A model generated the notes under the pieces. The model was not told the origin of the DNA, searched no databases, and saw only the letters and a program-made list of their open reading frames with translations. From Escherichia coli (GTDB lineage: Bacteria > Pseudomonadota > Gammaproteobacteria > Enterobacterales > Enterobacteriaceae): a stretch of DNA of 22,187 bases. Of this stretch, positions 19,109 through 22,187 are shown piece after piece. Positions within the stretch are counted from its first letter, which is position 1. The number at the start of each line of letters is the position of its first letter. The DNA is taken from the NCBI RefSeq assembly GCF_003334255.1, contig NZ_QOWU01000067.1; one strand, given 5' to 3'. The translations under genes were made by a program, and so were the position numbers.

Positions 19109-19145
19109 TGCTATCAATTTGTCATTTGTATTACGCGAAAATTAT

Positions 19146-20126
19146 ATGAACGCAATAATATCGCCCGATTATTACTATGTTCTTACCGTTGCTGGTCAGT
19201 CTAATGCCATGGCGTATGGCGAAGGACTGCCATTACCGGACAGGGAAGATGCGCCTCATTCCAGAATTAAACAATTAGCGAGATTTGCGCATACGCATCC
19301 CGGAGGCCCGCCATGTCACTTTAACGACATTATTCCACTGACTCACTGCCCACACGATGTTCAGGATATGCAGGGTTATCACCATCCTCTGGCAACGAAT
19401 CATCAAACACAGTACGGCACCGTTGGCCAGGCACTGCATATTGCACGGAAATTACTGCCCTTCATTCCTGATAATGCAGGGATTCTTATCGTTCCGTGTT
19501 GCCGTGGCGGATCGGCTTTTACCGCGGGCAGCGAAGGGACATATTCAGAACGGCACGGAGCCAGCCATGATGCTTGTCGTTGGGGAACGGATACTCCGCT
19601 GTACCAGGATTTAGTCAGCAGAACGCGAGCCGCACTGGCAAAAAATCCGCAGAACAAATTCCTCGGCGTATGCTGGATGCAAGGCGAATTTGACTTAATG
19701 ACCAGTGACTACGCGTCACACCCTCAACACTTTAATCATATGGTTGAAGCCTTTCGTAGGGATCTAAAACAATACCATTCTCAGCTTAATAATATTACTG
19801 ACGCGCCGTGGTTTTGCGGCGATACCACCTGGTACTGGAAAGAAAATTTCCCGCATTCGTATGAAGCTATTTATGGCAATTATCAAAATAATGTTTTAGC
19901 CAATATTATTTTCGTCGACTTCCAGCAACAAGGTGAAAGAGGACTGACGAACGCGCCTGATGAAGACCCGGACGATTTAAGCACGGGATATTACGGTTCA
20001 GCGTACCGGTCACCGGAGAACTGGACGACGGCACTGCGAAGCAGTCATTTCAGCACTGCAGCCCGTCGGGGGATTATTTCTGACAGATTTGTAGAAGCAA
20101 TTTTGCAGTTTTGGCGCGAAAGGTGA
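19146..20126 (+). CDS. nanS: 9-O-acetyl-N-acetylneuraminate esterase NanS (SGNH-hydrolase-like, 326 aa)
   Basis: ORF 19119..20126 trimmed to the ATG at 19146 (MNAIISPDYYYVLTVAGQSNAMAYGE...); the GQSNA motif is the SGNH-family catalytic serine block; third gene of the nanCMS operon. Confidence 0.88.
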   Translation: MNAIISPDYYYVLTVAGQSNAMAYGEGLPLPDREDAPHSRIKQLARFAHTHPGGPPCHFNDIIPLTHCPHDVQDMQGYHHPLATNHQTQYGTVGQALHIARKLLPFIPDNAGILIVPCCRGGSAFTAGSEGTYSERHGASHDACRWGTDTPLYQDLVSRTRAALAKNPQNKFLGVCWMQGEFDLMTSDYASHPQHFNHMVEAFRRDLKQYHSQLNNITDAPWFCGDTTWYWKENFPHSYEAIYGNYQNNVLANIIFVDFQQQGERGLTNAPDEDPDDLSTGYYGSAYRSPENWTTALRSSHFSTAARRGIISDRFVEAILQFWRER

Positions 20127-20620
20127 GCGGGGAGTTTATTCATGGGGGATGTCCTTGTTCGTTCTCAGAGTAGACAACAAAAAACAAATGAGATCAAGGT
20201 AATATCTCTTCACTTGCGGGCTCGAACAGCAGGCAATTGCCAATATAATAATCTGGCACAAGGGTGAAAAACGCGCACCGCATAAACCGTTGTTATTGCT
20301 TACAGATTAGCCGGATGCCTTAATAGACATCCGCGCCTTTTCGATTATGGCTCGGAAATCTACGAACATCTACACAGTTTACTGGAACGTTTTGGGCCAC
20401 AGCGTTCGCAGCACCGTCCTGATATGCCGTTCTGGCGATTATAAGTCGACGGATTCTGGCAAATAGACGATGATGATATGCTTAATGATGTTCAAAGAAA
20501 TTAGGCCATTATTATATTATTGCTTGCATTTTCTTTCATTCCTAAAAGCACCCGCCATTAATCCCAGGCGCATTATGCAAAGGAAAATGATTAGGTAAAC
20601 AATAAGATTTATAATAAGGA

Positions 20621-20653
20621 AAGGCGACTCGCAATAAAACGGAAAGTCGCCTT
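20621..20653 (-). terminator. Candidate terminator hairpin downstream of the yjhR-like ORF
   Basis: AAGGCGACT (20621-20629) / AGTCGCCTT (20645-20653) 9-bp stem with a 15-nt loop, about 55 bp past the ORF stop; on the minus strand it is followed by TCCTTATTAT. Confidence 0.4.
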
Positions 20654-20708
20654 AACATTGGTAAAATATGCCCTTTACTACTCCTGTATCATGAACGGCT
20701 CATCACAT

Positions 20709-21901
20709 TTAAAGCTGACGTTGATCCAGACTACCATATATTGCCTTTATTTCATTTTTTACGCCTTCACCACGGTACACCAAAGACGTATCGTATCGTT
20801 GATACTTATCTTCCCGTGTAGCACTGAACCAGTTAAAAGATCCGACACACAGCAGTTCTTCATCCTCAATCACAATTTTGCTGTGAACACGATTAACCAA
20901 TTTCGTAGCGATACCCATCTTATTGAGCTTTTCAACAGCATCATTCAGCAGATGTTGTTTCTCCTGACGCTTATCATCATCGACATGCGCTATATTGCAG
21001 TTTTTATCCGTCACCACGGTAATATCAATGCCCCGGGAACGGGCCAAAGCCATTGATGCCAGAAATCCCGTTTGCTCCACTTTTTGCCAGGATAACCAAG
21101 GGGAAATAATCGTTATTTTCTTTTGAGCTCCGGCAAGAGTCTTGTTCAAAAATTCATCATGCTGCTCCACACCATGCAGCGTTGAAATTTGTGTATGTGC
21201 GGAAATTAAATCCTGTCGTTTCTGAAACTCAAATTGCAACGCATTATTATCTGAAGAAAAGAGATATTTTGCCAATAACCCTCGCGGCGAAAATGCGGGC
21301 TGCATCTCGATAAGGTCCATATCGCCAAATACCAGAAAACTATCTTTAGCGCGTGAGACAGCAACATTGAGGATAGTGCTGTTGCTATCAAGAAACCTGC
21401 CATCTTCATGTTTTGAGTAGACAGGAGAAAAGAGAACAATCGCCCTTTCCGCCCCCTGCAAGGAGTGCACAGTCCCCACTGTCAGTAAACCCTGCTCGTC
21501 TTTGCCATTAATTTCCAGCTTACGCAATGACATTTTGATAGCATTAACCTGCGCCGAAAATGGCGTCACAACACCAACAACTTTGTACAGTGGTTCCCCG
21601 TAATGGCGCTCTATATCATCCTTATGTGCCACCAGCCATGCTGCTATTGTTTCAGCTTCAAGAGGGTTATGACGGCTCCCTCCATTTGGCTTCATGCCTC
21701 TACCATCAATATGTAAATATCCCATTGCGGGGAAAATCGTCCTTTTTCCATCCCTCTTTTAGGCTGCAACTTACCGTGATAGCAAAGTGAGTTACAGTAG
21801 TCGATGATGTTATTGAAACAGCGACGATGCTCATACAGATACATTCCGCGCTCGAACTTGGGATCATACTGGTAGTGAGAGTTGAACTGGGCTACCTGCA
21901 T
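20709..21901 (-). pseudogene. yjhR: yjhR-like remnant: C-terminal half of an Upf1-like SF1 helicase fused to a single-HKD PLD nuclease; 5' part frameshifted and truncated
   Basis: The 338-aa ORF (20709..21725) carries helicase RecA2 motifs ([49 protein letters not shown]) and a perfect PLD motif [18 protein letters not shown] (HxKx4Dx6GSxN, about 20832-20885). An upstream 69-aa ORF (21692..21901) in another frame looks like further helicase sequence. No Walker A / RecA1 core ORF is present up to the window end. Confidence 0.7.
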
Positions 21902-22187
21902 TACGCTGCCAGATGCTGCACTTTTTCCAGACCCATTTATTATCGAATACGGTGACCGCCTGAGCGGCCACCTTTAATCGTGGGCAGTTACACAGAATTA
22001 TTTACAGGGTCTTGCTGGGAGTTCTTACACTTGCTCGCGATATTCAATTGGCCATTGTCAACAAATGACGCAGGTTTTGATTGGTGATATCTATTTACGT
22101 CAGCAATGCGGGTAATGACTCCAACTTATTGATAGTGTTTTATGTTCAGATAATGCCCGATGACTTTGTCATGCAGCTCCACCGATT

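Follow-up and report, generated by a model that had tools for sequence, protein, structure and literature searches.

Next to the nan genes of this Escherichia coli contig lies an open reading frame (ORF) that joins helicase sequence to nuclease sequence, which raises the question of whether the locus encodes a working anti-phage protein or only what is left of one. The window, by which we mean the whole 22,187-nucleotide stretch of DNA analysed here, corresponds to the E. coli fim-nan-yjhR chromosomal region, with yjhR on the minus strand and convergent with nanS (19119–20126, plus strand). Bases 20600–22110 share 99.9–100% identity with many E. coli chromosomes, K-12 MG1655 among them. From the evidence set out below, we conclude that the yjhR region is very probably all that is left of a type II Mokosh anti-phage gene (mkoC) and no longer functional.

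The larger ORF in the window, of 338 amino acids (20709–21725, minus strand), was examined by means of the ORF list, Pfam, PADLOC and alignment to an intact allele. It represents residues 834–1171 of the intact 1171-residue YjhR/MkoC protein, with the internal Met834 as its first residue, and comprises most of RecA2 followed by a phospholipase D (PLD) domain. Pfam AAA_12, here the C-terminal portion of RecA2, which is the second half of an Upf1-like SF1 helicase core, matches ORF residues 15–136 (model positions 81–194 of 195, E = 4e-18), which convert to window coordinates 21318–21683 on the minus strand. The PLD-like nuclease domain, Pfam PLDc_2, spans ORF residues 195–300 (E = 4.4e-11; 20826–21143, minus strand) and is accompanied by one match to the PLDc motif (residues 277–300, E = 1.7e-6). 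A motif search on the translation found a single HKD catalytic motif, HSKIVIED (HxKxxxxD), intact at 20862–20885 (minus strand) and corresponding to residue 1114 of the full-length protein. The ORF thus has the feature of a single-HKD PLD nuclease of the Nuc/Zucchini type, one HxKxxxxD inside a PLDc_2 fold. The initial annotation of this DNA, which was made from the letters alone, had predicted this combination of an Upf1-like SF1 RecA2 part with a single-HKD PLD domain, and the AAA_12, PLDc_2 and PLDc matches bear it out.

Upstream, a 69-aa ORF (21692–21901, minus strand) continues the helicase sequence in the original reading frame, which differs from that of the 338-aa ORF. The continuation in another frame had likewise been predicted, and it is supported here by a match to positions 752–809 of the PADLOC MkoC profile (E = 3e-26). 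The 69-aa ORF encodes residues 775 to approximately 827 of intact YjhR, and then an out-of-frame tail past a 1-bp deletion. The 338-aa ORF matches profile positions 812–1135 of 1136 (E = 3.8e-139, 464 bits), and both ORFs together cover ~34% of the profile. The match of the window ORFs to helicase and PLD sequence is far beyond chance. What remains in the window is codons 763–1171 of 1171, ~35% of the gene; the initial annotation was right that this is a C-terminal remnant, and "half" was an overestimate.

MkoC (Mokosh type II; PADLOC model PDLC03924) is by far the best match among the PADLOC defence-family profiles, in agreement with the earlier proposal of a Mokosh-like gene of the fused type II. 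There are weaker PADLOC and NCBIfam matches to MkoA, MkoB, DrmC, PDC-S37, PLuB_AAA, ProA and Hhe, which could be taken to mean that the fragment derives from another defence family: Mokosh type I MkoA/MkoB, DISARM DrmC, or a Nhi-, Hhe- or PLuB-type helicase. However, the next best models for the 338-aa ORF (MkoA, MkoB and DrmC), like every other non-MkoC PADLOC model, reach 64 bits at most against 464 for MkoC, and the intact allele matches the whole MkoC profile with 1464 bits. The NCBIfam matches all lie far below their curated cut-offs; since none of the models reaches its cut-off, no member of the NCBIfam set searched can be the source of the name "helicase YjhR" in RefSeq. Finally, the helicase and PLD domains lie in one chain and Pfam detects no kinase domain, whereas type I consists of two genes and includes a kinase. 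An origin from one of these other families is very improbable.

The intact allele was reached indirectly. A large protein search, whose matches were all proteins of 588 aa or less, gave no full-length homologue directly. The way to the complete gene led through a protein fragment at a contig end of a metagenome-assembled E. coli genome (P0003; 523 aa, 97% identical, un-shifted and longer, in the same nanS-nanM-nanC-fimB locus), followed by DNA searches with the extra 5′ DNA of this fragment. Of 5426 complete E. coli genomes, 13 carry an intact 1171-aa allele at this locus, adjacent to nanS, so the full-length homologue that the initial annotation suggested looking for in other E. coli does exist. 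Strains 2013C-4282 (L007) and 2017.09.02CC (L008) have it as an open gene of 3516 bp and 1171 codons, annotated as "helicase YjhR", and the two proteins match MkoC over profile positions 1–1135 of 1136 with 1464 and 1472 bits, respectively. The L007 protein contains Pfam AAA_11 (273–458 and 691–729), AAA_12 (795–969) and PLDc_2 (1028–1153), together with a Walker A motif, GPPGTGKT, at 294–301, a DEAG Walker B motif at 697–700 and the HKD motif at 1114. Intact YjhR has a predicted mass of 132.3 kDa and carries the residue pair A995/L996. The 5′ 2288 nucleotides are found in all 13 of these genomes with no change in length, and no part of them in any other E. coli genome of the collection.

Colinear full-length homologues with 39–63% identity are found on plasmids of Salmonella, Arsenophonus, Pseudomonas, Vibrio and Agrobacterium. 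Given the full-length alleles in E. coli and the colinear homologues in other genera, the conserved form is a fused protein of ~1170 aa. The phage collection and a 9.6-kb Salmonella "plasmid" record were uninformative, offering only fragments or unannotated linear contigs. Many E. coli proteins annotated as "DNA helicase, partial" (P0017–P0026) are only 65–67% identical to YjhR over the same domains, which suggests that E. coli has another, separate lineage of MkoC.

To place the lesions, we aligned the window to the intact allele L007. The two share a single 1537-nt block of 97.9% identity with one gap, and the block starts at window position 21935, equivalent to gene position 2289 in codon 763. 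Homology to L007, L003 and L008 begins at 21935 or 21933 and the sequence upstream is unrelated, which puts the 5′ deletion junction between 21935 and 21936 (minus strand). Approximately 2.29 kb of 5′ coding sequence (codons 1–762) has been lost, Walker A and Walker B included. The last codons kept, 763–774 (GSGKSAASGSV; 21902–21935, minus strand), lie 5′ of the first ATG (M775). Upstream of 21935 all three minus-strand frames are interrupted by stops to the end of the window. The initial annotation had described these interruptions correctly for the DNA beyond 21935. They do not reflect helicase sequence in gradual decay: homology to yjhR ends sharply at 21935/21936, a deletion junction.

The sequence fused to yjhR by the deletion (21936–22110) is identical to that upstream of yjhR in K-12. 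On its plus strand (22012–22109) lies the beginning, with a frameshift, of a small ORF of the GNAT family, detected by tblastn with a 99-aa GNAT ORF of strain AGR6128. This remnant is cut by the end of an IS1 element, 175 bp upstream of the yjhR deletion junction. The terminal 77 bases of the IS (22111–22187) recur across E. coli genomes in IS1 copies that carry the annotation IS1A/IS1B transposase. The exact IS1 junction of the window was found in none of the 5426 complete E. coli genomes searched, and in K-12 the site is free of IS1. In two dog isolates an IS1 lies 80 bp upstream of the position it has in the window.

The sole gap against L007 is the frameshift: at 21741–21742 (minus strand) the window has GG in place of the GGG (Gly828) of intact and un-shifted alleles. 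The site adjoins an A5 run at 21743–21747 and falls inside the interval of candidate runs, ~21726–21750, where the frameshift had been expected. Its position beside this run (GAAAAAGG), where a −1 slip would correct the frame, raises the idea that programmed −1 ribosomal frameshifting joins the 69-aa and 338-aa ORFs into a product like the 397-aa protein of un-shifted alleles. However, the zero-frame codons, GAA AAA GGA, do not form an X XXY YYZ slippery heptamer, and the existence of 786 genomes with the un-shifted GGG marks GG as a simple derived deletion. Moreover, RecA1 and the N-terminal region would be missing from a corrected product as well. Given the codon context and the distribution of alleles, we rejected programmed frameshifting at yjhR, which has a negligible probability.

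The frequencies of the two alleles were determined with a 61-nt probe across the frameshift in the 5426 complete E. coli genomes. The probed region is present in 1708 (~31%), as an exact match (GG) in 922 and spanning 62 nt (GGG) in 786. The GGG allele encodes a 397-aa ORF (P0002) that aligns gaplessly with residues 775–1171. Strain AGR6128 carries this GGG allele, yet has the same 5′ junction as K-12. Since shifted and un-shifted alleles share that junction, the deletion of the 5′ end came first and the loss of the G second. Other strains show additional damage: ISEc52 has shortened the yjhR fragment in JJ2434, and in AGR6128 an IS66-family insertion with an 8-bp duplication has split it. These are independent further lesions, and the IS1 of the window is one more such event.

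Taken together, these lesions point to the following course of events. The ancestral gene encoded one protein of 1171 aa (132 kDa), with an N-terminal region of ~270 residues, an Upf1-like SF1 helicase core made up of RecA1 (Walker A at 294–301, DEAG Walker B at 697–700) and RecA2, and a C-terminal single-HKD PLD nuclease. A deletion took away codons 1–762 along with the promoter region and joined codon 763 to unrelated DNA; subsequent loss of one G in Gly828 divided the remainder into the 69-aa and 338-aa ORFs; IS1 inserted 175 bp upstream of the junction; and two adjacent genes for restriction-type nucleases were reduced by deletions. A scan for promoters and terminators detected nothing promoter-like ahead of the remnant ORFs, and overall it gave no more sites than shuffled sequence does. 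By eye, no Shine-Dalgarno-like sequence is visible before either remnant ATG. Beyond the 3′ end, ~55 nt past the yjhR stop codon, an inverted repeat, AAGGCGACT ... AGTCGCCTT, is followed by a T-rich stretch (window ~20621–20653, minus strand). It may be the old terminator of yjhR; our terminator scan omitted it, as its loop is longer than the scan permits.

Because the remnant has lost the ATPase half, the native start and any recognisable promoter, it cannot act as a Mokosh system, and it is most likely silent, slowly decaying DNA. ATP-dependent sensing or translocation is impossible for the window fragment, since the ATPase half and the N-terminal region are missing. As a counterpoint, the PLD domain and its HKD motif are intact, and the 338- or 397-aa frame is open in many genomes. 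Moreover, an NTPase mutant of EcMokosh II still cleaved M13 DNA in vitro (bioRxiv 10.1101/2025.07.10.664194), so loss of the ATPase alone is no proof that the nuclease is dead.

These points bear on a different reading, in which the RecA2-PLD ORF (338 aa, or 397 aa when un-shifted) is retained and expressed as a stand-alone protein, either a PLD nuclease that is constitutive or differently regulated, or a modulator of intact Mokosh. Besides the open frame and the intact HKD motif, it can draw on the persistence of the remnant in ~31% of complete E. coli genomes and on the independence of the EcMokosh II nuclease from the NTPase active site in vitro (bioRxiv 10.1101/2025.07.10.664194). Against this, the first residue of the ORF is a Met from the interior of the ancestral protein, with neither a promoter-like site nor a visible Shine-Dalgarno sequence; the frameshift has cost the fragment 59 residues in 922 genomes; and in other strains independent IS insertions split or shorten it. 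Substitution patterns do not decide the matter. There are seven non-synonymous and three synonymous substitutions on the window lineage, and the pN/pS ratio is ~0.5–0.6 among truncated alleles, compared with ~0.11–0.14 between divergent intact alleles and 0.56 between two near-identical intact alleles. The ratio below 1 among truncated alleles speaks for a retained protein, but it is indistinguishable from the value for closely related intact alleles; the counts fit relaxed constraint and are too few to separate relaxed from purifying selection or to prove neutrality.

Comparison with other genera also argues against a stand-alone protein, as the conserved form there is the full-length colinear one and the short homologues examined are pieces of broken full-length genes, not members of a conserved short family. 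The Kosakonia homologue is cut by an IS3-family element, that of Brucella belongs to a row of three ORFs, of which the second and third overlap, and which together span the full-length gene, and that of Bosea is truncated. Escherichia sp. KTE31 and other assemblies (L004, L005 and L006; 10001–11101) have a truncated 366-aa MkoC fragment, 84% identical. This fragment lies elsewhere in the chromosome, in the vicinity of argG, and its neighbours are a restriction-modification pair of the Eco47II type, an AbiEii gene and a HerA-like ATPase.

The initial annotation had named, as the outcome that would overturn it, a 338-aa protein that proved to be a complete gene in its own right; what we found instead, in E. 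coli and in the other genera examined, is fragments. A retained stand-alone protein is accordingly quite improbable. There is a similarly slim chance that the RecA2-PLD fragment, which is open in most of its ~1700 carriers, is expressed from a fortuitous or IS-borne promoter and acts as an ATP-independent ssDNA nuclease or interferes with an incoming intact Mokosh. If an expressed fragment were active or interfering in this way, yjhR would be a domesticated fragment and not dead DNA. The dead remnant of a Mokosh type II gene remains the preferred reading, and the comparison with the intact allele (deletion, frameshift and IS1), along with the erosion of the adjacent restriction-type genes, upholds the original description of a decaying defence gene.

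These adjacent genes lie between nanS and yjhR. A frameshifted remnant of a phosphorothioated-DNA-binding HNH restriction endonuclease (residues 8–96 of 290) was located at 20227–20492 (plus strand) by tblastn with the intact protein of L008. It is convergent with yjhR, and its equivalents in K-12 and L007 are annotated in RefSeq. In a blastn comparison of L008 with the window, another HNH endonuclease gene was recognised at 20115–20143 (minus strand; ORF 20045–20143) by its first codons (MNKLP...) and the bases preceding them. The remainder of this gene has been deleted, so that what is left directly adjoins the stop codon of nanS. In L008 both genes are intact after the intact yjhR, as a 290-aa phosphorothioated-DNA-binding HNH protein (10883–11755) and a 216-aa HNH protein (11892–12542). 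The haplotype closest to that of the window is L007, in which the HNH neighbours are already eroded although yjhR is intact; erosion of the neighbours therefore preceded, in this haplotype, the truncation of yjhR.

The wider context of the intact gene is the leuX integration hotspot. Strain 2017.09.02CC has a complete P4-like satellite after the leuX tRNA, with int, gop/beta, psu, delta, an Icd-like gene and the alpha primase. The satellite is 11.7 kb long (L011 6976–6995 and 18594–18678) and is closed by a copy of the leuX 3′ end (20 of 21 nt) just upstream of intact yjhR (L011 6976–6995). Homology between L007 and L008 begins exactly at this leuX 3′ copy, and the elements upstream differ; the one that ends at this point in L007 carries CbtA/YeeU and RelE/ParE toxin-antitoxin genes. 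Since the leuX 3′ copy lies just upstream of yjhR and the two loci are homologous from there, the yjhR-HNH-HNH module sits just outside attR of the current satellite, at the distal edge of the hotspot. It probably represents what remains of one end of an earlier element. A second leuX-derived repeat, which would mark the outer boundary of that element, was sought between the HNH gene and nanS and none was found. The locus thus presents three defence-type genes beside the leuX hotspot worn down by deletion, frameshift and IS insertion, a case of cluster erosion, yet kept in about one third of the species.

Part of this picture was known. RefSeq describes K-12 yjhR as "helicase YjhR; frameshifted; incomplete; missing N-terminus", and K-12 YjhR has already been named a fused Mokosh (bioRxiv 10.1101/2022.12.12.520048), so that neither the pseudogene status nor the Mokosh assignment of yjhR is new. 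What we add is the exact position of the junction and the frameshift, the order of events, the allele frequencies and a caution on K-12 YjhR: the 338-aa protein is the last 29% of the full-length one and lacks RecA1, and K-12-type strains have no working Mokosh. The preprint cited above used the 338-aa YjhR as its model of a fused Mokosh, and its results should be read accordingly. The practical value lies chiefly in correct annotation. In addition, the full-length allele in the 13 genomes, for example those of 2013C-4282 and 2017.09.02CC, offers a natural version at the native locus that can be used for experiments.

We compared the locus with known systems. A PDB sequence search with the intact protein found no solved Mokosh structure and returned only weak matches (E ~1e-4), to the Upf1-like SF1B helicases DNA2 and IGHMBP2. 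A model of K-12 YjhR was reported to have domain-level structural similarity to MOV10L1 and PLD6/Zucchini (Cury et al., bioRxiv 10.1101/2022.12.12.520048). These eukaryotic proteins of the piRNA pathway are separate polypeptides that act on RNA, and their relationship to YjhR is distant (E ~1e-4 by sequence). Mokosh type I comprises two genes, encoding the helicase-kinase MkoA, with a Ser/Thr kinase domain, and the PLD nuclease MkoB (Millman et al. 2022). It shares the same two catalytic domain families with YjhR, as reflected in the weak MkoA and MkoB profile matches, whereas intact YjhR has both in a single chain, and its Pfam matches include no kinase domain.

In Mokosh type II, a single polypeptide combines an N-terminal Upf1-like (COG1112-type) SF1 helicase with a C-terminal PLD nuclease (Millman et al. 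2022), and mutation of either the ATP-binding site or the PLD site abolishes defence (Millman et al. preprint). The published phage-protection assays concern full-length proteins (Millman et al. 2022; bioRxiv 10.1101/2025.07.10.664194). The intact allele shares the whole profile and the fused helicase-PLD layout, with L007 and L008 both showing the complete type II architecture. By contrast, the window copy retains the last third of the profile; positions 1–751, encompassing the N-terminal region and RecA1 with Walker A and B, are missing, and the rest is frameshifted. Its ORFs fall well short of a near full-length MkoC match. They include RecA2 (AAA_12) and PLD only, so that just one of the two RecA-like halves of an Upf1-like SF1 core is represented, AAA_11 being confined to the intact allele. 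The Walker A motif needed for defence is absent, as GPPGTGKT and DEAG both lie in the deleted part, and the PLD HKD motif, also needed for defence, is present. With three defining features lost and one, the HKD motif, kept, the window copy is a remnant of the Mokosh type II family and not a member of it.

The biochemically studied EcMokosh II is a 132-kDa monomer that cleaves only ssDNA and nicks plasmids, needs its PLD active site in vitro, protected against an ssDNA phage only, and was split experimentally at A995/L996 (bioRxiv 10.1101/2025.07.10.664194). Intact YjhR has the same mass (132.3 kDa against 132 kDa) and the same A995/L996 pair; judged from size and this one residue pair only, it is probably EcMokosh II itself or a closely related, colinear protein. 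Of EcMokosh II, only residues 763–1171 would have their equivalent in the window. Among the closest known counterparts of the window copy is the K-12 pseudogene yjhR of the KpLE2/leuX island, which is 99.9–100% identical at the nucleotide level and has the same junction and the same frameshift; the two differ in the IS1 end 175 bp upstream of the junction, which is present in the window only.
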